In this document: in pieces, positions 6,904 through 40,763 of the stretch
Position numbering within the stretch: the stretch's first letter is position 1
Layout: every line of letters starts with the position of its first letter
Assembly: GCA_964639915.1 (NCBI GenBank)
Contig: CAZXHW010000001.1
Location: forward strand, 1 to 40,763
Direction of reading: 5' to 3'
Length of the DNA stretch: 40,763 bases
Source: an uncultured Heliomicrobium sp.
GTDB taxonomy: Bacteria > Acidobacteriota > Blastocatellia > RBC074
The notes under the pieces: generated by a model
The model's database searches: none
Told to the model about the DNA's origin: nothing
Seen by the model: only the letters and a program-made list of their open reading frames with translations
Program-made: the position numbers and the translations under genes

Positions 6904-7914
6904 TCATTGCTTCACAGGAGGATGCCAAGCTTTATACCGCAGCTTGACGGTCGCATCGGTTGTTGAAAGCAGCAGCAGCCGCTTGTTAATTGGATTGATG
7001 CCGTCGGGATAATAGGTCAGTTGATAGCGGTCGTTGCGGAGTTCGTCACAGATTTCTTTGACCGATTGTTTGACGTCGTCTTCGATCTTGAAAACTTTGC
7101 CGCCGGTTCCTTCGGTAAGGCGTTTCAAGGCTTCGGCAGCTTTCGGTGCGTCTTTGCGCAAAGCGCCGCGCGTCCGGTCACGGACTTGGATAGCGTAAAC
7201 CGTGATGTTTTCGTTTTGCAGCTTGGCCAGGATTTCGTCAAATTTGATTTTGCTGTCGCGATCAATTCCGTCCGCTACAATGACGATAACCCGTTTGGAA
7301 AAGCCAACTTCCGGCCTCAGCACGTCTTCCACCACAACATTCAGCGCATCGAAAAATTTCGGCTGCTCAACTTTTCTCAGCAACTCTTTGGTGTTTTGCA
7401 AATCTTTGGGGACGTCCGTGAAGTCAGTAATGATTTCCGGCTTCAGGTCATACCCGATGACCATGACTTTGTCGCCTTCATAAATTTCGGGTGCAAAGGC
7501 AGCCGGAACAGATGCCAATTTGCCAACATCGGCGGGCAAGGTTTGCGAATTGTCCATCAGCACGACAATGCGCGCCGGAGTTGGGTCCGGCGCAAAGGCT
7601 TCAATCTTTTGCAGAACTCCGCCATCAAAAAGCTCCAGTACTTTTCGCTGGACGACCTTGTCCTGATCTTCTTCATTGCCACTGCCCGCCAATAAAGGTT
7701 TTGGCTTGTTCGGATCTTCGACTCGCTGCGCCACGACATGCAACACGGTTGTCCGGCGACTCGACGTTGGGGCGCGGCCGGATTGCGCTTGCGCCGCAAT
7801 TGCCACAAGCATCATCCACATAAGCGCAAGACACACCAACCGCGAGATGGGGAGAAGTTGAGACGAGGAGACGTGGGTTAAAGATTCGATCGTTTGCGCT
7901 TCTGACGTTTTCAT
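6904..7914 (-). CDS. Secreted VWA-domain protein (acidobacterial VWFA-related type), paralogue-like to 3297-4421
   Basis: The hydrophobic N-terminus LVCLALMWMMLVAIAAQAQ is followed by a VWA core (RIVVLMDNS...VIVIVADGIDRDS...VYAIQV) and the C-terminal YQLTYYP. The exact start is uncertain. Confidence 0.8.
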   Translation of the reverse strand: MKTSEAQTIESLTHVSSSQLLPISRLVCLALMWMMLVAIAAQAQSGRAPTSSRRTTVLHVVAQRVEDPNKPKPLLAGSGNEEDQDKVVQRKVLELFDGGVLQKIEAFAPDPTPARIVVLMDNSQTLPADVGKLASVPAAFAPEIYEGDKVMVIGYDLKPEIITDFTDVPKDLQNTKELLRKVEQPKFFDALNVVVEDVLRPEVGFSKRVIVIVADGIDRDSKIKFDEILAKLQNENITVYAIQVRDRTRGALRKDAPKAAEALKRLTEGTGGKVFKIEDDVKQSVKEICDELRNDRYQLTYYPDGINPINKRLLLLSTTDATVKLRYKAWHPPVKQ

Positions 7915-14159: not shown

Positions 14160-14726
14160 ATGGACGTGCCTGCTTCCAATCAGATCACGGAGCAGTTGAT
14201 TGCCTGGAGCAATGGTGATCAATCGGCGCTGGTTGAAATCGCTCCGGTCGTTTACCGCGAATTGCGGCAAATGGCCGACCGTTTTTTGCGCCACGAAGCC
14301 GCCGGTCATAGCTTGCAACCGACTGCTCTGGTTCATGAAGCCTGGCTGCGGCTGGCTGACCAGACTCGCGTCAACTGGCAAAACCGCTCACAGTTTTTCG
14401 GCATTGCGGCTCAGATGATGCGCCGGATTCTGGTGGATCACGCCAAAACCAAACACCGCGAAAAACGTGGCGGCGACGCGATCAAACTTTCGCTGGACGA
14501 CATCATCAATTTGTCCGGTGAACGCGCGGCTGATTTGGTGGCTCTGGATGAGGCTCTGGATGCGCTGCAAAATTTCGACTCAAGAAAATGCTCCGTTGTC
14601 GAGCTTCGTTATTTTAGCGGGTTGAGCGTGGAAGAAACCGCCGAAGTTCTGGAAGTTTCGCCCGACACGGTTATGCGCGATTGGAAGCTGGCCAAAGCCT
14701 GGTTGTATCAACAGCTAAAGAAGTGA
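14160..14726 (+). CDS. ECF-type RNA polymerase sigma factor (the ECF family typically paired with Ser/Thr kinases)
   Basis: The N-terminus ITEQLIAWSNGDQSALVEIAPVVYRELRQMADRFLRHE...LQPTALVHEAWLRL and region 4 (LSVEETAEVLEVSPDTVMRDWKLAKAWL) fit this family. Confidence 0.85.
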   Translation: MDVPASNQITEQLIAWSNGDQSALVEIAPVVYRELRQMADRFLRHEAAGHSLQPTALVHEAWLRLADQTRVNWQNRSQFFGIAAQMMRRILVDHAKTKHREKRGGDAIKLSLDDIINLSGERAADLVALDEALDALQNFDSRKCSVVELRYFSGLSVEETAEVLEVSPDTVMRDWKLAKAWLYQQLKK

Positions 14727-14731
14727 ACCCA

Positions 14732-17620
14732 ATGACGCCTGAAAAGTGGCAACAGATCGAAGCCTTGTTTCATTCGGCGCTGGATCGTCAGCCAAACGCG
14801 CGAGCCGCGTTTTTGCGTGACGCCTGCGGCGAAGATTCCGCCTTGCGCGATGAGGTTTGGCGCTTGCTGGATTCTTATGACGAAGCAGGCGAATTCATCG
14901 AACAGCCGTTACTGGAAAATTCAGCCAACCCCGCCGAGCCGATCATTGGCCAGAAAATCGGCGGCTACGAAATTCAATCCTTGCTGGGCGCGGGCGGAAT
15001 GGGCGAAGTTTATCTGGCCCGCGACGCCAAACTGGACAGGCCAATCGCCCTGAAATTATTGTCGGCTCAATTCACCCGCGACGTCGGGCAGGCGCTGCGA
15101 TTTGAACGCGAAGCCCGCGCGATTGCGGCGCTCAATCATCCGAACATCATCACCATTTACGAGATCGGCCAGGACGGCGACCAACACTTCATCGCCACCG
15201 AACTGGTCACAGGGCAAACGCTGCGCGAAACGATCAACGCCGGAAAACTGGAACCGCGCCAGGCCGCCAACATCGCCGCTCAAATCGCCAATGCGCTGGC
15301 GGCGGCTCATTCGGCGGGAATCATTCACCGCGACATCAAACCAGAAAACGTGATGGTCAGGCCGGATGGCTTGGTCAAACTTCTAGACTTTGGATTAGCT
15401 AAGCCAACCGGGTTGCGGATTGCGGATTGCGGATTGCGGACTGAAGCGGATGGGGGATTTAAGATTGAAGATTGCGGATTACGGATTGAAGACCACTTTC
15501 AAAATCCGCATTCCGCAATCCGCAATCCGCAATCGTACACAGATCCGAAGGCGCTGATGGGAACGCTGGCTTATTTGTCGCCGGAGCAGACTCGTCAAGA
15601 AGAGTTGGACGCGCGCACAGACATTTTTAGCCTCGGCGTTGTGCTTTACGAAATGCTGGCGGGAATTCGTCCGTTCAAAGGCGCAAACGCCGCCGAAGTT
15701 TGCGAAGCCATTTTGAACCGCGAGCCTGAAGCCTTGCCCAACTTTCCGGATGCCTCCGCAATGTCGTTCATCGTCAAACGCGCTTTGATGAAAGACCCAG
15801 CGCATCGCTACCAAAACGCCGCAGAGTTTCGCGCCGACTTGCTGCAAGTGGAGCAAGCGCAACAGCAAGCTCCGGCCAGACGCGGCAAAAGTTTGGCCGT
15901 CGCGGCGGCATTCTTTCTGTTGGCAGCTTTGGGCGTTTGGATTTGGCAATCGTTCAACGGGCGACGAAACTCGTTCAATTCAGCCGCCGCGCAAAAACTG
16001 ACCACCTTTCCAGGACAGGAACTTTTCCCCAGCATTTCGCCCGGCGGCCAAAGCGTCATTTTCGCCAGCCGTCACAACGGCAGCATGGACATTTACCGCC
16101 AGACGGTCGGGACTAAATCAATCATCAATCTGACGGAAAATCGTCCAGGCGCAGAAATTCAACCGGCGTTTTCTTTTGACGGCAAACGAATCGCGTTTCG
16201 GCAGTTGCACGAAGGCAACGGCGGAATCTTCGTGATGGACAACGACGGCGGCAATCTCGAACAAGTGACCGATGTCGGTTTCAACCCGGCCTGGTCGCCG
16301 GATGGCAGCGAAATCGCCTTTGCTGACGACATCATCTGGGATTACGAAGGCCGTAACACTTACCCCAGCGCCAGCCGTTTGTGGGCTGTGAACCTGAAAA
16401 CTCGCCAGCGCCGCGTGATTTCCGAACGCGACGCAGTTCAGCCGAACTGGTCTCCGAACGGCCACAGGCTGGCTTTTTGGGGAGAGCAACAAGGCGGTCA
16501 CCGCGACATTTGGACTGTCGCAGCCAACGGCGGCGAACCGACACCTGTGACAAACGATGAACACATTGACTGGAATCCGGTCTGGTCCCCGACGGGAGAA
16601 CATCTTTATTTTCTGAGCAATCGGGGCGGCGAAATGAATTTGTGGCGAGTGCCGATTGACGAACGCACAGGCCGGTTGCTGGGCGCGCCAGAACCGGCGA
16701 CTTTGCTGTCTAACAATTGCCAGCATTTCAGTTTCGCGCGCGATGGCCGCAGCCTGGTTTACGGCCAACAAACACGCACGGAAAACCTGTGGCAAATCGG
16801 CTTCGATCCCGTCAATGAACAGGTCGTCGGTTCGGCGTTGCCAATGACTCAGAGCCTGAAGCGGTACGCCCAGTTTTCTTTGTCTCCGGATGAAAAGAGT
16901 TTCGCTTATTTGGGGCGAGGCGAACCTCAGCAGGATTTGTTCACTGCCACAATAACCGGCGCGCCGCTGCAGCGGCTGACAGACGACGCGGCTCAGGACA
17001 TCATTCCTCGCTGGTCGCCCGCTGGCGACTGGATCGCCTTCCTTTCCGACCGTGGCGGCAAATATGAAATCTGGAAAATCCGCCCCGACGGCAGCGGCCT
17101 GTCGCCAATGACTCACGAACCCGGCAAAGAAGTCATTGCGCCGGTTTGGTCGCCGGATGGAAAACGGCTGGCCTATCAAATTCGCAACACCAACGCCGTT
17201 GTCATTGACGCCACGCGGCCCGGCGCTGAGCAGGTTTCACAAGCCTTGGGCGGCGAACAACCTGAAGGCTTTTTGCCCTGGGAATGGTCGCCCGACGGAA
17301 CGACGCTGGCGGGTTGGCAACCTCCGCGTTTGAAACAGCAGGAACGCGGAATTGTTCTTTACTCGTTCGCTCACCAACGCTACGAACAATTAACCCGCAC
17401 GGGGTTTTATCCCACATGGCTGAACGACAGCCGGCGCTTGCTGTTCAGAGAAGGCAACGAACTGTTTCTGCTCAACCGACAAACCGGCCAAACGAAAAAG
17501 ATTTATTCGGTCAATCTGCCCAACCAGCTCAGCCATTGCCTGATTTCGCGCGACAACCAGCGGCTTTATTTCACTACCGTCAGCGCCGAAGCCGACATTT
17601 GGCTGCTGACTCAAAAATGA
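14732..17620 (+). CDS. Transmembrane Ser/Thr protein kinase with an extracytoplasmic TolB-like PD40 beta-propeller
   Basis: The kinase motifs are GAGGMGEV, IALK, HRDIKPEN, DFG and SPE. The TM segment is LAVAAAFFLLAALGVWIW. At least 8 PD40-like units are present (PAWSPDGSEIAF, PNWSPNGHRLAF, PVWSPTGEHLYF, PRWSPAGDWIAF, PVWSPDGKRLAY and others). The start lies 5 nt after the sigma gene stop. Confidence 0.9.
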   Translation: MTPEKWQQIEALFHSALDRQPNARAAFLRDACGEDSALRDEVWRLLDSYDEAGEFIEQPLLENSANPAEPIIGQKIGGYEIQSLLGAGGMGEVYLARDAKLDRPIALKLLSAQFTRDVGQALRFEREARAIAALNHPNIITIYEIGQDGDQHFIATELVTGQTLRETINAGKLEPRQAANIAAQIANALAAAHSAGIIHRDIKPENVMVRPDGLVKLLDFGLAKPTGLRIADCGLRTEADGGFKIEDCGLRIEDHFQNPHSAIRNPQSYTDPKALMGTLAYLSPEQTRQEELDARTDIFSLGVVLYEMLAGIRPFKGANAAEVCEAILNREPEALPNFPDASAMSFIVKRALMKDPAHRYQNAAEFRADLLQVEQAQQQAPARRGKSLAVAAAFFLLAALGVWIWQSFNGRRNSFNSAAAQKLTTFPGQELFPSISPGGQSVIFASRHNGSMDIYRQTVGTKSIINLTENRPGAEIQPAFSFDGKRIAFRQLHEGNGGIFVMDNDGGNLEQVTDVGFNPAWSPDGSEIAFADDIIWDYEGRNTYPSASRLWAVNLKTRQRRVISERDAVQPNWSPNGHRLAFWGEQQGGHRDIWTVAANGGEPTPVTNDEHIDWNPVWSPTGEHLYFLSNRGGEMNLWRVPIDERTGRLLGAPEPATLLSNNCQHFSFARDGRSLVYGQQTRTENLWQIGFDPVNEQVVGSALPMTQSLKRYAQFSLSPDEKSFAYLGRGEPQQDLFTATITGAPLQRLTDDAAQDIIPRWSPAGDWIAFLSDRGGKYEIWKIRPDGSGLSPMTHEPGKEVIAPVWSPDGKRLAYQIRNTNAVVIDATRPGAEQVSQALGGEQPEGFLPWEWSPDGTTLAGWQPPRLKQQERGIVLYSFAHQRYEQLTRTGFYPTWLNDSRRLLFREGNELFLLNRQTGQTKKIYSVNLPNQLSHCLISRDNQRLYFTTVSAEADIWLLTQK
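15413..15532. repeat. 120-bp heptad-based palindromic element lying in frame inside the kinase gene
   Basis: (TTGCGGA)x4 at 15413-15440 is complementary at 27 of 28 positions to the (TCCGCAA)-type array at 15505-15532. The spacer consists of further GATTnnn heptads. The element spans exactly codons 228-267. Confidence 0.85.
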
Positions 17621-18741: not shown

Positions 18742-20067
18742 ATGCTGACCTTCCTTCGACCCAAAAAATCACCTCGATTCGTTTTCGTCACAGCTTTGCT
18801 GACCGGCATAGCTGCGCTAACTGCGATCATCGGCGGCATCGCAGGCCAGCTCGGCAAATATGAATTTGCGGCAATTAGCTCCAGAATCGCCTTGGGACTG
18901 GCGGTGATTGTGATGCTGTATGTTTTGCCACGGCTTTTTCTAAGCGTCCAATGGCGGTCAAATTATGCAGCGCATGTTCCCAATGCCGGGCTGATTTTCG
19001 GCGCGGTCATTTTGCTGGTCACGGTTCTGGCACTGACCAGCGGAAACAACCTTCTGTATGTAGTGCTGGCAATTCTGCTGGCAACGATGATTGTTTCCAT
19101 AGTGTCAGCGCGCATGAATTTGCACCGTATGACGCCTTCCATTCGCTACCCCGGCCATATTTTTGCCGGCGAATCCGTTCCCTTTGAAATCACGCTGAAA
19201 AGCGAAAAGCGGTTTCTGCCTTCATTTTCCCTGTCCGTTGATTTGGTGGAAGAGCGTAAAGCGCCAAGCGAAGAATCGAAACCTGCACAGCAACATGCTG
19301 TTGCATTGAGCTATTTTTCTCTTATTCCGGCGCGGTCATTTGGCCGAAGCGTGATCGAACGGCGTTTTGACCGGCGCGGCGTTTATCCTGTTACCGGATT
19401 TCTGATCAACACAGGGTTTCCGTTTGGATTTGTCGAACAACGGCGCTTTTTTGAATGGTCGGGCGAAATCATCGTCTATCCTCAGCCGGAACCGATTGAT
19501 GATTTCGCGCATCTGTTGCCATTGGTAGCCGGACAGCTTGAAAGCCGGGTTAAAGGAACCGGCAGCGATTTGCACGGCATTCGGCCGTATCTGGCCAGCG
19601 ATCATCATCACCACATTGACTGGAAAGCAACCGCCAAAACTCAGCAAATGATGGTTCGTGAATTCACGCGCGAAGATGATTGGCGAATTACGGTCATTTT
19701 CGATTCACAAACTGACGGGCAACTTGCCAATGAAACCGAGGCAGCGGAACAGTTTGAACGCGCCATCACCTTTGCCGCCAGTTTGTTATCGCATTTCATC
19801 AATCTGGGGGGCGAGGTGCGATTGATGACGATCGGCTGCGACACAGGGTTCGGCACCGGCCAGCCGCATTTATTTGAAATGCTCAGGCAATTGGCCCCAC
19901 TTGCTCCGACCAAGCCGGAAGAAAGAGAATTGCAGACGGAAAAACAACGGATGGGAAGTTTTCAGATTTTGATCACTCCGAATCGCGGCGCTTCTGCCTT
20001 GTCGAACGGTTCCATGACTCAGGTCGTCTATTTCGACGAATTGAGCCGCGCGAGTAGTTTGCAGTAA
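18742..20067 (+). CDS. DUF58-domain protein with N-terminal TM helices
   Basis: The DUF58 signature context is GTGSDLHGIRPYLASDHHHHIDWKATAKTQQMMVREF. It lies directly after MoxR, which is the canonical partner position. Confidence 0.8.
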   Translation: MLTFLRPKKSPRFVFVTALLTGIAALTAIIGGIAGQLGKYEFAAISSRIALGLAVIVMLYVLPRLFLSVQWRSNYAAHVPNAGLIFGAVILLVTVLALTSGNNLLYVVLAILLATMIVSIVSARMNLHRMTPSIRYPGHIFAGESVPFEITLKSEKRFLPSFSLSVDLVEERKAPSEESKPAQQHAVALSYFSLIPARSFGRSVIERRFDRRGVYPVTGFLINTGFPFGFVEQRRFFEWSGEIIVYPQPEPIDDFAHLLPLVAGQLESRVKGTGSDLHGIRPYLASDHHHHIDWKATAKTQQMMVREFTREDDWRITVIFDSQTDGQLANETEAAEQFERAITFAASLLSHFINLGGEVRLMTIGCDTGFGTGQPHLFEMLRQLAPLAPTKPEERELQTEKQRMGSFQILITPNRGASALSNGSMTQVVYFDELSRASSLQ

Positions 20068-20079
20068 CCGGGCTCACAA

Positions 20080-22302
20080 ATGAACTTCAACCGCTTCTTT
20101 ATCGGATCATCCTATGTGCTGATTGCCACCAGCGCAGTAATGCTGGCGGCGACACATCGCTTGGACAAGGTTTCTTTGGCGCTTTTCGCCGGAGCGATGA
20201 CGGCGGGTATTTTGATTGATTTGGATCGGTTACGCTGGAACATCCCTCGCCGTGTATCGAACGGGCTGATGATTGCGTGGGTTGGTGTGGCTTTTCTTGA
20301 ATGGCAGATCTTTCATTTGCCGCCGGTTGCCGTGGTGACGCATTTTGTTCTTTTCGCTGCGACCTTGAAACTTTTGCGCCCCAAAACCAACCGGGACTGG
20401 CTTTGGCTGCATATTGTTTCGTTCTGCATCGTGCTGATGTCCGCCGGACTGATGGTGGGAACGATGTTTATGGTGCTGCTGGTCGTTTATCTGCTGGCAG
20501 CGGCTTCGACATTGCTCGCGTTTGAAATTCGCCGCTCGCAACAGGCCTTCAATCATGAGGTCAGCACACAAACCGTGACTGTTGAATTATGGCGCGAGGT
20601 AAAAAATCAGCGCCAGCCTTTGCCGCAACCTCCCAGCCGAAGCCTGTTTTTCTTTTCCACCGCAGCCATGTTGATGATCCTGCTGCTGGCTGCGCCGTTG
20701 TTTTTTGTTGTGCCCAGAATTACGCGCAGTCCCAGCCGCGGCGGAGCGTTGCAGGGAGAAGCTCTTTCAGGATTTTCAGACACCGTAAAATTGGGCGAAG
20801 TGGCGCAGATTAAATTAAATCCCCAGGTGGTCATGCGCGTTCGGGTCGGATTTCCGCAGGGGCAACAAAGTCAAACTCAGCAACAATCCCTGAGATGGCG
20901 CGGAGTAACACTGGACAATTACGACGGCCAAAGCTGGAACAATTTCGGCCCGGGTTCAGTACAGGTGCGGCGTTACGGCGAAAGCTTTCGCGTTGACGAA
21001 CCGGATTTTCGCCACGGTTTTACCGAGCAAAAATTCTTCATGGAACCGCTGGACCTTCGCAATGTTTTCGTCGCGACGCGCCCCGTGCTGGTCACTGGAG
21101 TGGCAGATTTGCTGCGCGATGCAGGCGACGGGCTTTGGACAGAAGCATATCAAACAACCGATCTCAGCTACACGGTTTATTCCGACACCTGGACTCCGAC
21201 TGACGATGAACTGGCCGCAGACAATTCCCGCGAATACCCGCGCAGCATCTCGCAGCGGTATTTGCAATTACCGGACAGCCACGACCACAACATTGACCAG
21301 TTCGCAGCAAAACTGACTGAGACCGCCAAAACCCAGATCGAAGTGGTTCGCCGCATCGAACAACATCTGCGCACGGAGTACGATTACACGCTGGACCTGC
21401 AACCCGTCACCGAAGGCGACCCTGTAGCCGATTTTCTGTTCAACACGCGCGCCGGTCATTGCGAATACTTCGCTTCGGCGATGGTGTTGATGCTGCGTTC
21501 GCGCCGTATTCCCGCGCGGCTGGTCAACGGGTTTCAAACCGGCGAATACAATACAACGGCAGACGTTTTCACCGTTCGCCAGTCGGACGCGCATTCGTGG
21601 GTGGAGGTCTATTTTCCGCAATACAAATGGATCGCCTTTGATCCAACGCCTGCCGCCGGCCTGAGCGCCTATGATGGCGGCATGATGGCTTTCCTGCGGC
21701 AATACAGCGAAGCGATGGAAATGTTTTGGCTGGAAGAAATCGTCAGCTTCGACACATCCAAACAAATCTCGCTTCTGACCACGGCGCAAAGCTGGATGTC
21801 GTCTTACCAAAAAAGCGTGACGTGGCAATGGATGGATTGGACGCGCCACTTCAGCGAAAAATTTGATTTCTGGCGTCAGAGCCGCCTGACAGAAAACAAA
21901 AGCGCCAATGACGATTTGAAAAGCCCCGGCTGGCGCGATCTGGCAACTGATCCGCTGGCTTTATTTTTGAGTGGGCTTGCCATCACAGGGCTGATATATC
22001 TGCAGCGCAAACGGCTTCTCTTTTGGCGCCAACCCGGCAAGCGCAGTGCTTCGGAATCAGCCATCAGGTTTTACAGAGAAATGCTGCGCACGCTGGAACA
22101 GGCGGGCCATCGCCGCTATCCGCACCAAACCCCGCTGGAATTCGCCGCGCAAATCGGAATCCCAGTTGTCAGCGAAATCACACAGATTTATCAACGCAAA
22201 CGGTTTGGCGACGAAGCATTGACCAACGACGAAACCGAACACGTAGAGATGATGTTGCAGGAATTGAAGAAAACCACGAAAAGAAAATCACGCAGCCATT
22301 GA
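20080..22302 (+). CDS. Transglutaminase-like membrane protein (TgpA-like: multi-TM N-terminal region, transglutaminase core, C-terminal TM/DUF4129-like tail)
   Basis: The Cys-His-Asp core is GHCEYFASAMVLMLRSRRIPARLVNGF ... DAHSWVEVYF ... FDPT. About 6 N-terminal hydrophobic helices are present. Confidence 0.85.
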   Translation: MNFNRFFIGSSYVLIATSAVMLAATHRLDKVSLALFAGAMTAGILIDLDRLRWNIPRRVSNGLMIAWVGVAFLEWQIFHLPPVAVVTHFVLFAATLKLLRPKTNRDWLWLHIVSFCIVLMSAGLMVGTMFMVLLVVYLLAAASTLLAFEIRRSQQAFNHEVSTQTVTVELWREVKNQRQPLPQPPSRSLFFFSTAAMLMILLLAAPLFFVVPRITRSPSRGGALQGEALSGFSDTVKLGEVAQIKLNPQVVMRVRVGFPQGQQSQTQQQSLRWRGVTLDNYDGQSWNNFGPGSVQVRRYGESFRVDEPDFRHGFTEQKFFMEPLDLRNVFVATRPVLVTGVADLLRDAGDGLWTEAYQTTDLSYTVYSDTWTPTDDELAADNSREYPRSISQRYLQLPDSHDHNIDQFAAKLTETAKTQIEVVRRIEQHLRTEYDYTLDLQPVTEGDPVADFLFNTRAGHCEYFASAMVLMLRSRRIPARLVNGFQTGEYNTTADVFTVRQSDAHSWVEVYFPQYKWIAFDPTPAAGLSAYDGGMMAFLRQYSEAMEMFWLEEIVSFDTSKQISLLTTAQSWMSSYQKSVTWQWMDWTRHFSEKFDFWRQSRLTENKSANDDLKSPGWRDLATDPLALFLSGLAITGLIYLQRKRLLFWRQPGKRSASESAIRFYREMLRTLEQAGHRRYPHQTPLEFAAQIGIPVVSEITQIYQRKRFGDEALTNDETEHVEMMLQELKKTTKRKSRSH

Positions 22303-33260: not shown

Positions 33261-33935
33261 TTAGCGCAGCGTTTTGTACCAGCGATTCAGCCGATTCGGA
33301 TCAACGCCCAGCCAATACAAAATTTGCATCATCACCCACAACGCAAACGTGCGAACAAATCGCCCTTCAAACCTTCGCGAAGAAGTCATTGCCGCAGCGC
33401 GCAATCGCACGAATTTTCCAACTTTCCGCATCCGCCGGTACAGATCGCAATCTTCAAAAATCGGATAGTCGCGATAGCCGCCCAATTGATCAAAAACGCT
33501 CCGGCGAATAAAAATCGCCGAATCTCCATAACACATTCCGCCCAGCCGCAACAGCGGATACATCTTGGTCAGCAACCGTGCTTCGCGCGTGCCGCCGTCA
33601 AAAACCAAATTAAAATTGCCTCCACAAATTCGCTGGTCCTGTAGCAGGTCTTCAATCATCGCCAATGCGCCTTCGGGCAGGCGAGTGTCGGCATGTAAAA
33701 ACAGCAGCGTATCGCCAGTCGCCAATTGCGCTCCGGCGTTCATCTGCTGCCCTCGGCCACGCGGAGTTTCGATCACGCGCAAACCGCATTTGCGCGCCAG
33801 TCTGACAGTTTCATCCTGACTGCCACCATCGGCAACGATGATTTCAAAATCGCCGCGCAGCCGCTGCAGCGACGTAGCCAATTCCTGAACAATCGCCTCT
33901 TCATTAAACGTCGGGATGATAATCGAGATTTTCAC
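33261..33935 (-). CDS. Family-2 glycosyltransferase-like protein (small, single-domain)
   Basis: [13 protein letters not shown]...[14 protein letters not shown]...[11 protein letters not shown]...LLFLHADT...[10 protein letters not shown]. From memory it resembles the short 'transferase 2' GT-A family. It starts 20 nt downstream of the CHAT gene stop. Confidence 0.8.
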
Positions 33936-33955: not shown

Positions 33956-36900
33956 TTATCGCCACTCTCCTTGCAGCGCGAAAGCCGCCCAGTAATAGGG
34001 TTCACGCCATTGGCTTTCTTTCAGCATTTCCATCTGCGCGGCGCGAAGTGCAGCAGCCGGTCGCAAGTTTTCTTTCAGCATTTTGCGGTAAAATCGCGCC
34101 ATCAAGTCGGCAGTTGCCTTGTCATTAACCGACCACAGACTGACGACCACCCGCGGCGCTCCGGCGTACATAAACCCGCGCGTCAGTCCGACCAGCCCTT
34201 CGCCTTTGATTTCTTTGCCGAGACCAGTTTCGCAGGCGCTCAACACGACAACATCAGAGTTCAGTTGCAGGTTGTACACTTCATACGCATAAAGGAACCC
34301 GCTCTGTTGCGCGCCATCTTTATTAATCAACGAAAGCACCAAGGCCGAAAATTCCGGACGTTCGCTGTCTAGATAGCCGTGCGTGGCAAAGTGAACATAT
34401 CGGTATTGACTCAAATCTTTGGCCGTCGCCGTTGCGCGACTGGCATCAAAATCCAGCGCCTCTTTGCGGTCGGCTTCGGGAACCAGCGCCAGAATCTTTT
34501 CAGCTTCCTGCCGCGTGTAAGGCAATCGCATGATTCGCATTTCGCCAGTCGCTTCGGCGTTTTTTTCCTTGATGTGTTTCAACGACCGCTCTTCGGCAAC
34601 GGCTTGCGATTGAGACTTTTCGGCTTCTTTTGGTTGTGGAACGGGCACGTTGCCCTGATTGCTGATTGTCGGCCTGGCCATCGTTCGGACTCGTTCGTCG
34701 TCTTTTTCAAAAACCGGATCAGCCAACACCGCCAGCATTTTTGGCGCGATTTGCCGTTGCGCCGTATCACGACGCAGAACTGCCATGGTCGAAGCCGACG
34801 GCAAATTGACGATTTCGTGATCCTGAATCAGCGGCCGGTGGTCAATAGTCGGCGGTTGGTTGGGAACAGTTTTTTTGTTGGCAACGGTTAAAGCCGCAAA
34901 CGGAACATACTGCAACGCGCCAGAAGCGACGATCACCAGTCGTTTTTTGCCGAGTTGTGAAACCACAGGCTTAATCAACGTGTTGCTCAAATAACGCAGC
35001 GCCTGAAGCCCTCGCGCTTTTCGCTCGCTTTCCGTAATTTCCACGCCTTCATGTTTCAATCGGCGTTTGCTGTTTGGCTGATTGGGTTTGCTCAGCCATT
35101 CGTAAGCGTTGCGCGCTTCTGCTTCCAGCTTTGCGCGCGGAGGCAAAACGTAACTGGTGATTCTGGTTGGCGTAACGGCCCACAAAAAGCTCTGCTTTTC
35201 GCCAAGCCAGTATTCCAGCAGCAAAGTGTCATTGTCCAAAACCTGTTGCTGAATTTCTTTCAGGCTAAGCGGCGATGGCTGAGTCAACGCGGCATAACGC
35301 GGGCTTGCGCGGCGGATTTCTGACCGGACTTCGTTGTATTGCACGGTCAGGTCATCCACTTCTTTTTTTGCCGCAGCGACCTGTTCGGGTGACGGACGGC
35401 TGGCGTAAAGCCTGGACAGCGCGTCAGCTTTGCCGCTGAGCTGGTGATGCAGATTGCGCTCGCGCTCCAGCAATGTCGCGTCAACGCCTTCGCGAATGCT
35501 AGCGTTCGATTCGGCCAGAATTTCCAGCAGACTTCGCGCACGCGCGCGTTCGCTGACCTGCAACGCTTCACCGCTGAATCCTCCGCTGACCTCGCGACCA
35601 TTCATACGCATCAGCAGTTCAATATAAAAGTCGTAATACTTTTGCACCGTCGCGAAATACGAAGCCCGCAGTTCCTGGCTGGCGACTTTTGTGCGAAGCG
35701 ATTCAACGATGTTCAGCGTTTCTTCGATCTGGCTGCGCGATTGATCCAGTTCACCGGTATCCAGTTTGACGCGGGCGATTTCGTATTTTGCTTTGGCTTC
35801 CAGCGCGGGATCGCTGATTGCCCGGCTGAGTTCGGCGGCGCGGTTGAAATTCTCAAACGCTTTTTGCTTTTCGCCCGAAGCGCTTTCGATCAAACCGATA
35901 TTGATCAAAGTTTCGGACTCGCCAGCGCGATTGCCAACTTCACGATGCAGCGGCAATCCCTGATTCGAAAATTCCAGCGATTTGTCACGCTGATCCAGCG
36001 AGCGGTAAACCATTCCCGTCGCCGTCAACGTGATGGCTTCGCCGCGCTTGTCTTTCAACTGACGCCAGACGGGCAGGGCCTGGGTTAGATAATCCAGCGC
36101 CTTTTGCGTGTCTTCAAGCTCGTAATGCAGAAAACCCAGTAAATGCAGCGTGTCGGCTTCGACAGTGCGATTGCCGGTTGTGCGGTGAATTTCCAGCGCC
36201 TGCAAATACATCTCGCGCGCTTTTTCTTTTTCACCAAGCGAAGAATATAGCGTCGCCAAATTCGTCGAGATAATGCCTTCAACCTGTTTCGCACCAATAG
36301 AGCGAGCCAGGGTTAACGCTTGAGCGTAATAATCCAGCGACTTCTGCTTTTCGCCGAGCAAGTCATACGCTTCGCCGATGTTTTGAATGGCGCTGACTTC
36401 GCCATCTGCGCGTTTGGCTTCGCGCCACAATGGCAGCGCCTGATTGTAATAATCCAGCGCGCGCAGATTTTCGCCCAAATCTGAATAAACACTGCCGATG
36501 TTGGTCAGTGTGCTGGCTTCGCCGAGCTTGTCATTGGCGGCACGGCGCAACGGCAAAACCTGATCGAACGATTCGGCGGCTTTTCGTTTTTCGCCAAGCG
36601 CAAAATAAATCGCCGCCATGTTGTTCAGCACCGTCGCTTCCAGGCCGCGATTGTTCACTTCACGCGCCAACGCCAGCGCCTGGTTGTATTGCTCAAGCGC
36701 CTGTTGCTTTTCGCCGAGCGTGTTCTGAACCAAGCCCAGAAAATTCAGCGTGCTGGCTTCTTCGCGTTTACGACCCAAGCTGCGCCAGATCGGCAATGCT
36801 TGCTGGAAGTATCCAAGCGCCTCTTTGTTAGTTCCCCGGTCGCGATTGACCGCGCCCAGGTCAAGCAGCGTGTTGGCTTCGCCCATTTGATCTTTAGCCG

Positions 36901-37912
36901 CTTGATAAACTTTCAGGGCTTCGGCGTAAGCGTCCAGCGCCTTCGGTTTATCGTTCATCGCTTCATAAGTTCGACCGATCCGAACGTGCATCTCGGCTTC
37001 GCGGCTTCGATCGCCGAGCTTTTGCCAAACCGTTCTGGCTTGCGCGAACGATTCAATCGCCTGTTGGCGTTCTCCCGCCGCAAGCTGCGTCGCCCCCATC
37101 GAAGTCACGACAATGGCTTCGCCGCGTTGGTTTGCGACTTCCTGCATGATCGGCAACGCCTGGCGAAAGAAATCCATCGCCGGTTTGAACTGTCCCATCG
37201 CCTGCTGCGTTTGCCCCAGATTGGTCAATGCGCTGGCTTCGCCCTTGCGGTCTTTCAGTTCACGCCGCAATTCCAAAGCCTGATTGAAGTAATCCAGCGC
37301 CTGCTGATTTTCACGCAGCGTGCGGGAAAGATCGCCAAGCGAATTCAGCGCCGTCGCCTGCTTTTCCTTATCACCCGTGACACGCCACAGCTTCAGCGCT
37401 TCTGTGTAAGCGGCCAGTGCGGCTTTCTTTTCTTCCGCTGCCTGACGCGGGCGAAGCTGTTCGCCTTTGGCAAATTGGCGCTCGGCTTCGATGCGTTCAG
37501 GATCAAGCTTTTCAATTGCGCGAAGTTCGACCAGTTTGATGGAAAACTTATTGGTTTCTTTTTCCTGCGAAGCCAGTTCGACGCGATAGTTGCCGCCGAT
37601 GCCCGCAATCAATGACACGTTGGCAGAGTCTGGCGAATCCTGATTCCACTGGTATTCGGCGACCGATTTGCCATCCGGCCCAAACAACTTGATGGAAAGG
37701 CGAACGTCTTTTGCCAAAACCGTGACGCGCGCGAAATCCAGCGTCTTCAGCGAAAGCTGATATGACTGGGTTTCGCCGCCGCGCAGTTCGGCTTCGACGG
37801 CTTTATCCAATTCCAATTGGGCCGGTTGCTGACTTCTGGTTGCGCCAGTGAGAAGAGAAAATCCAAACAGGAAAACGATGAAAAGCTGAGCAATACGATA
37901 TTGACGAAGCAA
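33956..37912 (-). CDS. TPR-repeat CHAT-domain (caspase-like) protease with an N-terminal signal/anchor sequence
   Basis: The TTG start has GGAGG 7 nt upstream. The N-terminal hydrophobic segment is [18 protein letters not shown]. Thirteen consecutive 40-aa TPR-like units follow. The C-terminal CHAT domain has the His (HFATHGY, codon 34379-34381) and the Cys (VVLSACETG, codon 34232-34234). Confidence 0.9.
35798..37357 (-). repeat. Coding array of 13 contiguous 120-nt (40-aa) TPR-like units
   Basis: Each unit has the pattern A-x-x-L-x-x-[LIM]-G-...-G-E-x-x-x-A-L-x-x-[YF]-x-Q-A-L-...-G-E. I counted units from [10 protein letters not shown] to ...AISDPALE. Confidence 0.8.
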
Positions 37913-38032
37913 AGCGAGCCTCCGTTAAAGAAGTAACGCTCACGGGCAAGCGTTCGGGGTTGATAAGGCTTAACGGGATTTCAAACGGGAGCGCAGGGGG
38001 AAGAAAACGGCGCGCATCTTCTGTTTTCCGTT

Positions 38033-39727
38033 TCAATGATGTTCCAGCTTAATCAGGTGAACCATCACGTCACCGACGCCGGAAATTTTGGTGACCTTAT
38101 TGGCGTCGTCTTTGGCAACAGTTACCGGAATCGCGGAATGTTTGGCGATCAAATCGCGTATTGTGCGTATTTGCTCCGGGTCGGTGATTTGGCCCTTATC
38201 CTTGGGATTTGCCAGTGATTTAACAATTTCAAGTTCCGGCAACCGCTTAGACGACCAAATCAGCCAAAGTTTCTCAGTTCCCTGGTCCTCATCGAAAACA
38301 AAACCATCGCCAATTGTCGGGATATTGATTTGTTGATTCGCGCCAAGTTCCGATTTGTTGTCGTTGGCCGTCGGCGAAGGAAACAGCGTGACGTATTCGG
38401 GCAAGCCATTCACTGGCTCTGGCGACTCGTTGATGATGTACAGGGAACCTTGCTGCGCCGCGCTGACATTGAACTGGACATGATAATCGTCCTCGAAAAC
38501 GACTTCGCTCGCCAGCCTGAAAGGAGCTTGATACGGTTTGTTATCGCGGTATTTCTGCACCATCACCCAATAACTGAAAGCAGGCTTTGCCACTACTGGG
38601 TCAACAATGTCAGGCGGCTTTTGTTTCGTAAACAGCCACGCGGCAATGGCAACGACGGCGATCACCGCTGCAACGGCAACCCATTTCAATGGCGAACCCG
38701 CCGGTTTTCCATCCGTACGGATTTTGGTTTCGTCCAGTGCCGTCTGACGCGCTTCGGCGGAACCTGTTGCGTTGTCATAGCGCATTGTCGGAACCATCGA
38801 ATCTACCGACTTTCCTATCGGACGCTGTTCCCCTGTTAATGCAGCAGCCAAATCTTCGGCAAATTCCTGAACCGTTTTGTAACGATCTTCGGCATTAAAC
38901 GATAGCGCTTTCAGCAAGGAGGCTTCGGCAGTTTCAGTCAAATTTCCGCGAAGTTCTCTGGGTTTGACGATTGCGCCTTCGCGTTGCATTTCGTAAAGGT
39001 CAACTGCCGAACCGGCTTTGAAGGGTGGACGCCCGGTCAGCATTTCGTACGCGACCGCGCCAAGCCCGTAAATGTCGCTTTCAGCAATCGGCTTGCCGCG
39101 CAACTGTTCCGGAGCCATATACGGCGGAGTTCCGGCAATCCAGGTGACTTCGACATTCGTGGCGACTTCTGAATCTTTGATGCGCGCGACGCCAAAATCA
39201 ATCAGCTTTATCTGCTGACGACCGCCTCCGACTTCTTCCAGCATGATGTTTTCGGGCTTCAGGTCTCGATGATAAACGCCCTTTTCGTGCGCGGCAGCCA
39301 AAGCTTCGCCCATTTGCCGAACGATGGCAGCCACGCGATCAAAATCCATGCCTTGCGGAATCATCGCCGAACGCAGCGTGTTGCCTTCGACAAACTGCAT
39401 CACCAGAAAGGGTTTGCCGTCAGGCATTGCGCCCGTATCCAGCACGCCCACCACGCCGGGATGGTTGATGCGCGCCAGCGCTTCCATCTCTTGTTTGAAC
39501 TTCTTCTGAAACCATAAATCGTACCGATCATCGCCGCGTTCCGCGATCAGAACTTTGATCACTACCGCGCGATTCAGCAATTGCCGGTCACGCGCCAGAA
39601 AGACCAACCCTAATCCGCCTTTGCCAAGCACGCGCTCAATCAGATACCGATCTTTCAGTACCAATCCTAGATAATCGGTCGAAGAGATCGCTTCACCCAG
39701 CGTTGAAGAGGTATTTTCGTTGTCCAT
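38033..39727 (-). CDS. Transmembrane Ser/Thr protein kinase with a C-terminal DUF4384-like extracytoplasmic domain
   Basis: The kinase motifs are GKGGLGLV, VVIKVL, HRDLKPEN, DFGVAR and GTPPYMAPEQ. The TM segment is WVAVAAVIAVVAIAAWLF. The C-terminus, with GSLYIINESP...LFPSP...EKLWLIW, resembles DUF4384. The start is the ATG at 39727. Confidence 0.85.
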   Translation of the reverse strand: MDNENTSSTLGEAISSTDYLGLVLKDRYLIERVLGKGGLGLVFLARDRQLLNRAVVIKVLIAERGDDRYDLWFQKKFKQEMEALARINHPGVVGVLDTGAMPDGKPFLVMQFVEGNTLRSAMIPQGMDFDRVAAIVRQMGEALAAAHEKGVYHRDLKPENIMLEEVGGGRQQIKLIDFGVARIKDSEVATNVEVTWIAGTPPYMAPEQLRGKPIAESDIYGLGAVAYEMLTGRPPFKAGSAVDLYEMQREGAIVKPRELRGNLTETAEASLLKALSFNAEDRYKTVQEFAEDLAAALTGEQRPIGKSVDSMVPTMRYDNATGSAEARQTALDETKIRTDGKPAGSPLKWVAVAAVIAVVAIAAWLFTKQKPPDIVDPVVAKPAFSYWVMVQKYRDNKPYQAPFRLASEVVFEDDYHVQFNVSAAQQGSLYIINESPEPVNGLPEYVTLFPSPTANDNKSELGANQQINIPTIGDGFVFDEDQGTEKLWLIWSSKRLPELEIVKSLANPKDKGQITDPEQIRTIRDLIAKHSAIPVTVAKDDANKVTKISGVGDVMVHLIKLEHH

Positions 39728-39755
39728 AAGAACAATGAGAGTTTGGGAAACGCGC

Positions 39756-40763
39756 CTATGCCGCTTCCCGGATTCCAGCCTTCGCGGCTTCGATAAAGGC
39801 GCGCGCATTTTCCACCGGAACCATCGGCATAATTCCATGGCCCAAATTCATAATGTGACCAGTCGGACCGGCCTTTTTCAGAATTTCCCGAACGCCTTCG
39901 CCAATGGTTTCCGGCGTGCCGAGCAGCGCACAAGGATCCAGATTTCCCTGCAAAGCAAGATTGTCGAACCCGGCTGCTTGCAACCGTTTATTCGCTTCAG
40001 CGATGTCAATTCGCCAATCCAGGCTCAGAACGTTTGCGCCGGATTCGGCCATTTTTTCCAGCACAGCACTGCAACCGTTGACGTACAAAATCGCCGGAAC
40101 GCTCAAGCCGCCAGGACCACGGTGCAGCCGTGAGAAAATCCGCTGGTAATATTCCAGCGCAAACTCTTCAAAATCATCGGCTGACAATTCACCCGCCCAC
40201 GTGTCGAACAGTTGCACAACCTGTGCTCCGGCTTCGATCTGAGCGTTCAGATAATCGGTGACTGTATCGGCGATCTTTTCCAGCAATTGATGAAGCAGCG
40301 CCGGATTGGCGTACATCATTCGTTTGATTTCCACGAAGTTGCGCGAAGTGCCGCCTTCGATCAGGTACGAAGCCAGCGTGAATGGCGCTCCGGCAAACCC
40401 AATCAGCGGCGCGCGATTGTCCAGTTCCTGCCGCAACAATCGGATCACGTCCATCACAAAGCCAGTTTTTTCCACAGGGTCCGGCACAATCAGCTTTTCA
40501 ACCTGTTCCGCCGTTCGAATCGGCGTTTCGATCACCGGCCCACGGCTTTCAATAACATCCAGCTTGACGCCCATCGCTTCAACGGGGATCAGAATATCTG
40601 AAAACATAATCACCGCGTCCACACCCAGAATGTCGAACGGCTGCATGGAAACTTCCGCCGCCATTTCCGGAGTCTTGCACAGCGTCAAAAAATCCGTTTT
40701 GCCGCGCACCGCGCGGTATTCAGGCAAGTATCGGCCAGCTTGCCGCATCATCCATACCGGAGC
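39756..40763 (-). CDS. hemE: Uroporphyrinogen decarboxylase (N-terminus truncated by the window end)
   Basis: The frame is open to the window end. APVWMMRQAGRYLPEYR is the classic HemE N-terminal motif, and the remainder is collinear with HemE. Confidence 0.9.
   Translation of the reverse strand, partial: APVWMMRQAGRYLPEYRAVRGKTDFLTLCKTPEMAAEVSMQPFDILGVDAVIMFSDILIPVEAMGVKLDVIESRGPVIETPIRTAEQVEKLIVPDPVEKTGFVMDVIRLLRQELDNRAPLIGFAGAPFTLASYLIEGGTSRNFVEIKRMMYANPALLHQLLEKIADTVTDYLNAQIEAGAQVVQLFDTWAGELSADDFEEFALEYYQRIFSRLHRGPGGLSVPAILYVNGCSAVLEKMAESGANVLSLDWRIDIAEANKRLQAAGFDNLALQGNLDPCALLGTPETIGEGVREILKKAGPTGHIMNLGHGIMPMVPVENARAFIEAAKAGIREAA

Follow-up and report, generated by a model that had tools for sequence, protein, structure and literature searches.

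Can a caspase-fold protease of the CHAT type work in the bacterial envelope? The question is raised by one gene in a 40,763-nucleotide stretch of acidobacterial DNA (hereafter the window), whose product appears to combine an export signal with a TPR array and a CHAT domain. Acidobacteria abound in soil and have received little study, and, to our knowledge, all CHAT/separase-type enzymes with demonstrated activity act in the cytoplasm or in the nucleus. A previous reading of the window from its sequence only (the sequence-only reading) took as its premise that CHAT proteases are cytoplasmic, which is incomplete, as there is one characterised precedent, DdvA, whose TPR-CHAT part is periplasmic (PMC11506125).

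Start codon and predicted export signal

The beginning of the gene is defined by the following features:

33956..37912, minus strand: TPR-CHAT open reading frame, 1318 aa, TTG start
37919..37923, minus strand: Shine-Dalgarno sequence GGAGG, 6 nt 5' of the TTG at 37910..37912 (read directly)
37841..37912, minus strand: predicted Sec-type signal peptide or signal anchor, residues 1-24 (from hydropathy and a family-wide n-h-c layout)

TTG starts are less common, and a second in-frame TTG lies at codon 33, so that the hydrophobic N-terminus might be a start-codon artefact of a cytoplasmic protein truly starting at, for example, Leu33. We consider this extremely improbable. The GGAGG is at optimal spacing for the upstream TTG only, and both elements are kept in orthologues, with CGGAGG and TTG found at equal spacing in L006 and L008, where the sequence of the h-region drifts. 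Residues 1-32 are also conserved as protein in P0001, P0002, L006, L008 and P0272-P0274. Moreover, a public protein collection contains the identical 1318-aa product, indicating that gene callers independently picked the TTG start too, and 93 relatives with starts of their own share the same N-terminal feature.

This feature consists of an n-region MLRQYR with two arginines (R3 and R6), an h-region of 15-18 residues, and a c-region TGA, with positive charge on the N-side only, as in the n-h-c layout of a Sec signal. Its 19-residue Kyte-Doolittle maximum is 1.93; above 1.6 the protein has just one further segment, at residue 992, which is a buried strand of the CHAT domain. Of 112 full-length relatives, 93 begin with a signal-like n-h-c N-terminus, whereas an internal segment scored as a control shows such a layout in 5 of 111; net charge in the relatives is +2.2 before the h-region and -0.2 after it, and the layout is kept across them as a feature, not as a sequence. 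Because the signal-like N-terminus is so widely shared, and because the module that follows it is of a PPC type typical of secretion (see below), the TPR-CHAT protein is very probably exported from the cytoplasm, which is further supported by the retention of start and ribosome-binding site in orthologues and by the periplasmic location of its structural neighbour DdvA. The sequence-only reading had pointed to a TTG start with a strong GGAGG, to basic residues followed by a hydrophobic stretch, and to a signal or membrane anchor in preference to a cytoplasmic N-terminus; the first two observations are borne out, and the third is supported.

Export could leave the protein either free or tethered. 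A rule-based check only gives a candidate cleavage site at A24|T25, with small residues at -3/-1 (T22-G23-A24), at which signal peptidase I would cut. No lipobox Cys is present in the protein, whose single Cys is C1227. Nonetheless, an h-region of about 18 residues is long for a cleaved Sec signal, and the segment may therefore be an uncleaved signal-anchor tethering the protein beside the kinase encoded upstream, in the manner of a DdvA lacking its cytoplasmic anti-sigma domain. About 18 residues suffice to span a membrane, DdvA is likewise membrane-tethered, and a tether would hold the protease near a membrane kinase. Against this, a small residue followed by Gln, typical of signal peptidase I sites, stands directly after the h-region in 72 of the 93 relatives with a signal-like N-terminus, although the window protein has T-G-A|T; moreover, the only six residues before the h-region leave no cytoplasmic domain. 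Taking both sides together, we view permanent tethering as possible yet rather unlikely.

The Tat route was also considered for this protein and rejected, because no RR precedes the h-region; nor is there an S/T-R-R-x-F-L-K motif. Among the relatives, an RR is found before the h-region in 25 of 92, and a loose Tat motif fits only 10.

PPC-like module, TPR array and CHAT domain

Downstream of the signal, the protein can be divided as follows:

37493..37840, minus strand: PPC-like beta-sandwich of eight strands, residues 25-140 (AF2 pLDDT 90.6, Foldseek)
35744..37423, minus strand: 14 uninterrupted 40-residue TPR units, residues 164-723 (lag-40 autocorrelation, Pfam)
35003..35743, minus strand: helical linker and N-terminal beta sub-domain, residues 724-970, preceding the Pfam CHAT match
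33968..35002, minus strand: CHAT caspase-like domain, residues 971-1315 (Pfam PF12770)
34532..34711, minus strand: charged insertion in CHAT, residues 1068-1127, of low confidence (pLDDT <50)
34379..34381, minus strand: codon of the predicted catalytic His1178 (HFATHGY), invariant in alignment A2
34232..34234, minus strand: codon of the predicted catalytic Cys1227 (LSACETG), invariant in alignment A2

The structural model shows the N-terminal module to be a beta-sandwich of PPC type, though a divergent one. Foldseek aligns residues 25-140 with the PPC domain of B. anthracis collagenase (5sv5; E=3.8e-5, TM 0.67/0.73) and with the collagen-binding domains of ColG/ColH, 3jqw giving a TM of 0.70; other matches are the Tk-SP jelly roll and GOLD domains, and the overall TM of 0.63-0.73 for PPC/collagen-binding matches is to be read with the fact that GOLD domains fit equally well structurally. 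Pfam PPC (PF04151) is matched by 17 of 25 aligned relatives (best 6e-7); the window's own sandwich sequence gives no Pfam PPC score, its sole Pfam match being MG2 at E=0.007. An exhaustive HMMER search with the module recovers 1025 relatives at E<=1e-3; a word-indexed search for proteins resembling the first 185 aa recovers only 3 close relatives, and the alignment of the module in relatives holds no conserved 7-10-mer. A pre-peptidase C-terminal-like sandwich had been guessed from an alternating beta pattern, and structural comparison, which had been proposed for this module as well as for the CHAT region, agrees with that guess.

Sandwiches of the PPC/collagen-binding type are seen in secreted proteases and in periplasmic proteins. 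The TPR-CHAT protein shares the fold with the PPC of secreted proteases, but carries it at the N-terminus of the predicted mature protein, whereas theirs is C-terminal, and joins it to a caspase-fold domain instead of the metallo- or serine protease of known PPC proteins.

The TPR array follows an unbroken 40-residue register, with a BLOSUM autocorrelation that peaks only at lag 40 (+1.1) and is negative at every other lag. Pfam TPR_12 is matched with E=1e-94 over 11 stretches, TPR_1 and TPR_10 are also matched, and a PDB sequence search returns LGN/Pins-type TPR matches to the array. The sequence-only reading had recognised this uninterrupted register but counted 13 units where there are 14. 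No Pfam family covers residues 724-970; the model gives them helices and strands, over which the Foldseek alignment with Csx29 and separase extends.

The CHAT domain matches PF12770 (clan CD, caspase-like) over practically its whole length (positions 3-288 of the 289-position profile; 237 bits, the cut-off being 24; E=3.4e-70). Its AF2 model has a pLDDT of 74, with a core above 85, and the charged insertion varies in length among relatives (alignment A2). Foldseek places the model closest to Csx29 (8eey_B, E=1.8e-11), with separase and DdvA (8rw5, E=8e-8) also matched; these matches, from E=1e-11 to 1e-7, show a caspase/separase fold. PDB sequence searches with the full protein, the CHAT region, the CHAT profile and the catalytic core yielded either TPR proteins or no match at all, apart from a marginal match to separase. 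In this weak alignment, which covers the AGAPxVVxxLWxVxD motif and the surroundings of the catalytic Cys, Cys1227 falls on the catalytic Cys of separase.

The His1178/Cys1227 dyad is intact, as had been claimed from the HFATHGY and LSACETG motifs with the Cys at this very codon, and its invariance in relatives, together with the modelled fold, speaks against degenerate catalytic residues. The TPR-CHAT protein is a predicted protease. A reading in which it is exported but no protease, the TPR-CHAT part acting as a ligand sensor or a scaffold for the kinase with a dyad kept unused, appeals to TPR and PPC being binding modules, to there being no exported CHAT with shown activity, and to the wild-type behaviour of the DdvA mutants H862A and C907A. 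Yet of the 63 full-length locus proteins, which span two phyla, all keep the Cys motif and 62 keep the His motif, and Cys1227 is the sole Cys retained in 1318 aa, which suggests selection on catalysis. We therefore hold a non-proteolytic role to be unlikely.

The upstream kinase and the conserved cassette

The genes on either side of the TPR-CHAT gene have the following features:

38033..39838, minus strand: Hanks-type Ser/Thr kinase, longest ORF 601 aa (Pkinase E=1e-41)
38630..38683, minus strand: single transmembrane helix of the kinase, WVAVAAVIAVVAIAAWLF (read directly)
38036..38593, minus strand: putative C-terminal sensor domain of the kinase, extracytoplasmic, DUF4384 family (Pfam)
33261..33935, minus strand: family-2 glycosyltransferase (GT2) gene, starting 20 nt downstream of the TPR-CHAT gene (Pfam)

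The kinase gene lies directly upstream of the TPR-CHAT gene on the same strand, with a gap of 120 nt, and is itself preceded by hemE. HRD, DFG and APE motifs are visible in its translation. The longest ORF overlaps hemE, which makes Met38 at 39727 the likely start; orthologues are 562-571 aa long, and the 601-aa form is absent from the protein collection. The transmembrane helix stands at an equal place in 24 of 24 related kinases. As to the ectodomain, the window kinase matches DUF4384 (PF14326) with 22.9 bits and E=9e-5, below the gathering score of 27, while the family is matched by 16 of 18 homologous kinase ectodomains (best 5e-9); a PDB profile search with the ectodomain found nothing.

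The GT2 gene may be co-transcribed with the TPR-CHAT gene. It is outside the conserved cassette, and in orthologue L006 it lies 8 kb from the CHAT gene. When promoters and terminators were sought around the three genes (kinase, CHAT and GT2), fewer sites turned up than in shuffled controls, and no operon boundary emerged. PADLOC returned generic TPR and kinase models only and no defence-system assignment. There is no adjacent gasdermin gene, the neighbours of the TPR-CHAT gene being the kinase and GT2, no cas-related Pfam match among the window ORFs scanned, and no CRISPR-like array in the window.

More than 7,500 relatives of the TPR-CHAT protein were found, mostly in Blastocatellia and Pyrinomonadaceae and some in Cyanobacteria. 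In this family, which counts thousands of acidobacterial and some cyanobacterial members, a caspase-fold protease seems to be positioned in the envelope. Using related loci gathered with the CHAT alignment and counted among species-representative genomes, we found that a gene for a Ser/Thr kinase with transmembrane helix and DUF4384 ectodomain lies directly upstream of 18 of 38 TPR-CHAT genes with a PPC module and of none of the 23 without it (Fisher p=2.9e-5). All ectodomain homologues in the related loci sit upstream of a CHAT gene, and reverse look-ups starting from the kinase ectodomain lead to CHAT genes downstream in 4 of 4 cases. In 13 of 16 related loci the gene ahead of the kinase encodes an ECF sigma of family TIGR02999. 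The TPR-CHAT gene is part of a widespread kinase cassette, usually with an ECF sigma, and its conserved tie to an upstream transmembrane kinase, which the sequence-only reading had overlooked, is a new finding and the most informative feature of the locus. Because kinase adjacency tracks the PPC module, we read the two proteins as a functional pair.

The association has its bounds. The kinase is adjacent in only about half of the PPC-bearing relatives, many paralogues being solitary or clustered with C14 caspases, CsgG and WD40 proteins, and acidobacterial genomes hold many TPR-CHAT paralogues and multi-copy cassettes. No ECF sigma stands next to the kinase in the window, and it is also missing from the cassette of the closest orthologues L006 and L008, so that any sigma-dependent step does not apply locally.

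Some loci have a small ORF between kinase and CHAT gene, without a signal peptide, for which the mechanism proposed below does not account. As a third component of the cassette it was rejected: some 7 loci have it, and the window does not.

The abundance of paralogues, the occurrence of PPC in secreted collagenases and subtilases, and a reprolysin-PPC metalloprotease as a neighbour in locus L004 could together suggest a secreted degradative or antagonistic protease, used for nutrients or for attack on cells, with a merely regulatory or coincidental kinase adjacency. This reading is very unlikely in our view, since characterised CHAT/separase-type proteases are highly specific and single-substrate, a TPR solenoid of 560 residues argues for one specific protein partner, and the link of the PPC module with the kinase ectodomain is strong and directional. 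Furthermore, the C-terminus carries no type-specific secretion tag and ends in the conserved CHAT sequence WAAFxLQGEWR.

Proposed mechanism and comparison with known systems

On balance, the reading that we consider probable, with modest confidence, is that of a Sec-exported caspase-fold Cys protease, periplasmic or anchored in the inner membrane, that would be paired with the upstream kinase as an envelope sensor-protease feeding kinase signalling. What the protease cuts and which way the signal runs are inferred as follows. The DUF4384 domain would be the only extracytoplasmic part of the kinase, with a TIGR02999-type ECF sigma heading the cassette in most relatives. Working at the outer face of the cytoplasmic membrane, the PPC module and the TPR array would bind a protein ligand, the DUF4384 ectodomain of the kinase, or both. 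The CHAT domain, presumed dormant until triggered as in other TPR-CHAT proteases, would then make a specific cut, most likely in the kinase ectodomain or juxtamembrane linker, which would alter the output of the kinase and, in cassettes with a sigma, also the phosphorylation of that sigma and the transcription that follows from it. As a conserved neighbour in a defined subfamily, with DUF4384 as its only external part, the transmembrane kinase is the obvious candidate partner or substrate, and an exported CHAT protease thereby gains a substrate hypothesis that can be put to the test.

A caspase-fold CHAT/C50 domain placed after helical repeats is also found in separase (Pfam Peptidase_C50) and in HetF of Anabaena, a CHAT protease of proven activity that has one specific substrate. 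The topology of HetF is nevertheless opposite, with CHAT in the cytoplasm and the TPRs in the periplasm, and separase is eukaryotic and nuclear or cytoplasmic.

Concerning the kinase, ECF sigma groups regulated by kinases are established, for example the ECF43-type pairs EcfP/PknT and EcfK/PknS (PMC7826278), and the order seen in most related loci, with a transmembrane Hanks kinase behind a TIGR02999 ECF sigma, is the arrangement of phosphorylation-activated sigmas. The window cassette, unlike ECF43-type pairs, has no sigma, and this literature makes no mention of an exported TPR-CHAT as a third member. It describes the groups but not what they sense (PMC7826278), for which the cassette provides a candidate sensory input.

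DdvA, a transmembrane anti-sigma factor of Myxococcus xanthus with a periplasmic TPR-CHAT solved by cryo-EM (PMC11506125; PDB 8rot, 8rw5; 2024), resembles the window protein in its TPR-CHAT body, its canonical His-Cys dyad, the Foldseek match noted above and its tie to ECF sigma signalling. It is membrane-tethered and lacks a three-helix active-site motif, and outside Myxococcota, proteins like DdvA have been reported from one Comamonas only; it was proposed as a site-1-like protease, an activity not demonstrated, its dyad mutants H862A and C907A had no phenotype, and its signal and substrate were not identified (PMC11506125). In the window protein the TPR-CHAT part would likewise lie on the periplasmic side, as its signal-like N-terminus and PPC module suggest. 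However, DdvA begins with a zinc-binding anti-sigma domain in the cytoplasm, ahead of its transmembrane helix, whereas only six residues precede the hydrophobic segment of the window protein, which therefore does not belong to the DdvA-like family. DdvA also lacks a PPC module, a kinase partner and detectable sequence similarity to the window protein.

The best structural match of the CHAT domain is to Csx29 of the type III-E Craspase, in which TPR is likewise followed by CHAT. Csx29 cleaves Csx30, one class of which has a C-terminal DUF4384, and Csx30 controls the ECF sigma RpoE (bioRxiv 10.1101/2022.08.17.504292), so that this system and the cassette have the same three kinds of component: TPR-CHAT, DUF4384 and ECF sigma. 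They differ in that Csx29 is a cytoplasmic protein that binds Cas7-11 and is switched on by RNA, whereas the window locus has neither cas genes among the ORFs scanned nor a CRISPR array, and in that DUF4384 is on the kinase and outside the membrane in the cassette but on Csx30 in type III-E. Tentatively, and with more doubt than for the mechanism outlined above, one may envisage the exported CHAT protease as the input device of a Ser/Thr-kinase pathway, which in most relatives would be a kinase/ECF-sigma pathway: an extracytoplasmic caspase-like 'site-1' cut of the DUF4384 ectodomain or linker, made when the PPC and TPR parts sense an envelope or foreign protein, would switch on phosphorylation-dependent transcription. 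The output module of Craspase (Csx29, Csx30 and RpoE) would then descend from an envelope-signalling cassette of this kind, which may tie the cassette by evolution to this branch of type III-E CRISPR.

A conserved sigma factor, kinase and CHAT cassette

We found that the gene for the PPC-TPR-CHAT protein is directly preceded, on the same strand and after a gap of 120 nt, by a gene coding for a Hanks-type Ser/Thr kinase:

33956..37912 (-), PPC-TPR-CHAT protein of 1318 aa
38033..39838 (-), partner Ser/Thr kinase (longest ORF, 601 aa)

The HRD, DFG and APE motifs of the kinase are intact, and a single TM helix, at residues 386-403 in the 601-aa numbering, is followed by a C-terminal domain of 185 aa. 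This domain gives a weak score against DUF4384 (E=9e-5), a family matched by 16 of 18 homologous ectodomains (best 5e-9). Concerning its start, the longest ORF, beginning at 39838, shares 82 nt (39756-39838) with the end of hemE, whose stop is at 39756, and the 601-aa form is absent from the protein collection; the true start is probably Met38 at 39727, which would give 564 aa, the orthologues being 562-571 aa long.

ORFs were called in the 80 species-representative loci and scanned with local HMMs. The counts cover CHAT genes with enough upstream sequence, and a kinase was scored if encoded on the same strand no more than 3.1 kb upstream. An STK-TM-DUF4384 gene was present upstream of 18 of 38 PPC-bearing TPR-CHAT genes versus none of the 23 lacking PPC (Fisher p=2.9e-5). 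All ectodomain homologues in the surveyed loci sit upstream of a CHAT gene, and a reverse search from the ectodomain profile recovered a kinase-DUF4384 gene followed by TPR/CHAT genes in 4/4 long contigs. Moreover, in 13 of 16 cases the gene directly before the kinase codes for an ECF sigma factor of family TIGR02999, a type linked to sigma factors under kinase control (ECF43-like). In the window and its two closest orthologous loci (L006 and L008), the cassette lacks the sigma gene, and hemE, kinase and CHAT follow one another in this order; hemE is 95% identical in L006.

An ECF-kinase association has been documented (PMC7826278), and CHAT proteins have been mentioned near another ECF group, ECF54 (PMC8999054), while no description of a sigma, kinase(DUF4384) and PPC-TPR-CHAT cassette was found in the literature searched. 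This conserved cassette is our main new result: it lifts the window protein above routine annotation and supplies a specific substrate hypothesis.

The window also contains a second kinase-type signalling pair, 20 kb away:

14160-14726 (+), ECF sigma factor of family TIGR02999, directly upstream of and overlapping the next gene
14681-17620 (+), 979-aa Ser/Thr kinase with PD40/beta-propeller repeats

This sigma factor may be a target fed by the sigma-less kinase-CHAT pair; in L006, a similar sigma-kinase pair is inserted beside the CHAT gene. Inside the second kinase gene, positions 15409-15534 consist of an inverted pair of heptanucleotide tandem arrays, (CGGATTG)n then (AATCCGC)n, in frame and right past the DFG motif (...LLDFGLAK PTGLRIADCGLR...NPHSAIRNPQS...). 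A 14-mer search gave 11 matches against about 1 expected, ten of them at this site and the eleventh, with 2 mismatches, at 8587-8600. CHAT homologues of other Blastocatellia also have the translated signature NPQSAIRNPQS in their variable loops. These observations suggest a repeat element that forms hairpins and is inserted into loops of coding sequences.

A small ORF (112-176 aa) separates the kinase gene from the CHAT gene in some related loci:

L036, 7404-7817
L085, 7464-7838
L084, 7438-7806
L062, 710-1087 and 1337-1729
L038, 7280-7810
L039, 7350-7688

Its N-terminus is W-T-I...LVGCHI-like and has no signal peptide, and most copies end in an acidic tail. It is not present in the window, and could represent a third component or a substrate. 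Other genes of the window include:

414-2303, animal-haem-peroxidase-like protein
3297-4421 and 6904-7914, two vWA-domain proteins
18742-20067, DUF58 protein
20080-22302, TgpA-type transglutaminase (TgpA_N, Transglut_core, DUF4129)

Finally, two Pyrinomonadaceae-type metagenome contigs (L002 and L088) carry large clusters with CsgG/FlgO-like lipoproteins, several Peptidase_C14 caspases, some fused to TPR, WD40 proteins, kinase-DUF4384, free-standing DUF4384 proteins, and multiple TPR-CHAT paralogues, suggesting that these bacteria have a wider caspase-like network associated with the envelope.

Start site, domain architecture and catalytic dyad

The CHAT gene spans 1318 codons from a TTG start, with GGAGG (37919..37923) six nt ahead of it, as an earlier sequence-only reading had described. 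A mis-called start is an unlikely alternative, although TTG is a less common start codon: TTG and CGGAGG are kept at equal spacing in L006 (87% identity) and L008 (78%), which are Blastocatellia or Acidobacteria MAGs, and the annotated start is therefore well supported. The public protein collection already holds the identical 1318-aa product, unnamed, together with three near-identical variants of the same length.

The N-terminal module had been guessed to be a PPC-like sandwich, and this proved correct. Residues 25-140 alone give no significant Pfam match, the top score being MG2 at E=0.007-0.02. An exhaustive HMMER search identified 1025 representative proteins with the module (E<=1e-3); nearly all are 1000-1300 aa long and have it beginning at a distance of 25-75 residues from the N-terminus. 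Of 25 modules that were aligned, 17 match Pfam PPC (bacterial pre-peptidase C-terminal domain; best 6e-7). The confident AF2 model of residues 25-140 has eight strands (pLDDT 90.6) and matches the PPC of B. anthracis collagenase (5sv5), the collagen-binding domains of ColG and ColH, the C-terminal jelly roll of Tk-subtilisin, the periplasmic inhibitor PliG, and GOLD domains (E=1e-5 to 1e-3, TM up to 0.7). Residues 25-140 represent a divergent PPC-type module, whose N-terminal placement is unusual.

Pfam TPR families match residues ~160-740. Their period is a strict 40 residues, lag 40 being the sole positive autocorrelation, and the register is unbroken as proposed, with 14 units over residues 164-723 instead of the 13 first counted.

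The CHAT domain (PF12770) covers residues 971-1315 and nearly the whole profile (E=3.4e-70). C1227 in LSACETG (codon 34232..34234) is the single cysteine of the protein and has H1178 in HFATHG as its histidine partner. PDB sequence searches reached no CHAT structure, and gave one marginal match, to Chaetomium separase (E about 1), in which C1227 aligns with the separase catalytic Cys and an AGAPxVVxxLWxVxD motif is common to both. The AF2 model of residues 880-1318 (pLDDT 74, core >85, with a disordered insert at 1068-1127) best matches Csx29/TPR-CHAT of type III-E CRISPR (E=1.8e-11), then separases (~E=1e-9 to 1e-7) and the transmembrane anti-sigma factor DdvA (8rw5, E=8e-8). H1178 and C1227 are invariant in the CHAT alignment, and among full-length relatives from the fetched loci the His motif is present in 62/63 and the Cys motif in 63/63; the dyad is thus not degenerate, in line with the initial description. 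A non-catalytic sensor, in which the TPR-CHAT body would serve the kinase without cutting, is a less likely reading, given that this invariance suggests a working protease.

Probable export and proposed mechanism

The N-terminus has two Arg, then the stretch of 18 hydrophobic residues noted before, then T-G-A|T, with neither a lipobox Cys nor a twin-Arg. A strongly hydrophobic 10-mer is found within the first 90 residues of 93 of 112 full-length relatives, versus 5 of 111 when an internal segment is taken as control, and is preceded just upstream by K/R in 92 of the 93. Net charge is +2.2 before the segment and -0.2 after it, placing the protein body outside by the positive-inside rule. Between orthologues the segment drifts in sequence and retains its character, as signal peptides usually do. 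Moreover, the first mature domain has a fold characteristic of secreted and periplasmic proteins, and the matching domain of the partner kinase is predicted to be extracytoplasmic. Together, these N-termini, the PPC fold and the gene context make export very likely, and support the earlier view of an exported or membrane-anchored TPR-CHAT protein with an intact dyad. The hydrophobic segment may be a cleaved signal or may act as an uncleaved anchor; speaking for cleavage are the T-G-A|T sequence and, in 72 of the 93 relatives, a small residue then Gln shortly past the segment.

Among relatives P0007-P0123, a twin-arginine stands directly ahead of the segment in 25 of 92 and n-regions are long (median 17 residues), so some paralogues might be exported in the folded state by the Tat route.

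The kinase's DUF4384 ectodomain and the protease's PPC module are the two parts that co-occur, and both are predicted outside the membrane, which points to an interaction between them at the outer side of the cytoplasmic membrane. Characterised TPR-CHAT enzymes are resting proteases that are switched on by binding and cut one specific partner; Csx30, the partner cut in type III-E systems, can carry DUF4384 and controls an ECF sigma factor (bioRxiv 10.1101/2022.08.17.504292). Based on this co-occurrence and these precedents, we propose that the exported protein would be a ligand-gated protease, most likely cutting the kinase ectodomain or linker, and that the cut would modulate the output of the kinase and, where the cassette is complete, phosphorylation of the sigma factor. 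A degradative secreted protease is an unlikely alternative, against which the association of PPC-bearing genes with the kinase speaks.

Family size and comparison with known CHAT proteins

The window protein belongs to a very large and uncharacterised family. More than 7,587 CHAT-region relatives were found at E<=1e-20, mostly in Pyrinomonadaceae, Blastocatellia and other Acidobacteria, and annotated merely as 'CHAT domain-containing (TPR) protein', along with at least 577 matching stretches in species-representative genomes, some cyanobacterial.

The initial premise that CHAT proteases are cytoplasmic holds for those with demonstrated activity (Csx29, HetF, separase); in HetF the TPRs are periplasmic and CHAT is not. 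It does not extend to DdvA of M. xanthus, whose TPR-CHAT domain is periplasmic and has a canonical dyad (cryo-EM, 2024; PMC11506125), so that an extracytoplasmic TPR-CHAT has a precedent. Self-cleavage of DdvA as a site-1 step before RseP is a proposal; among anti-sigma factors with a TPR-CHAT domain it is described as the only one characterised, and it is confined to Myxococcota and one Comamonas (PMC11506125). The window protein shares no detectable sequence similarity with DdvA and, lacking its cytoplasmic anti-sigma domain, is not a DdvA homologue in architecture.
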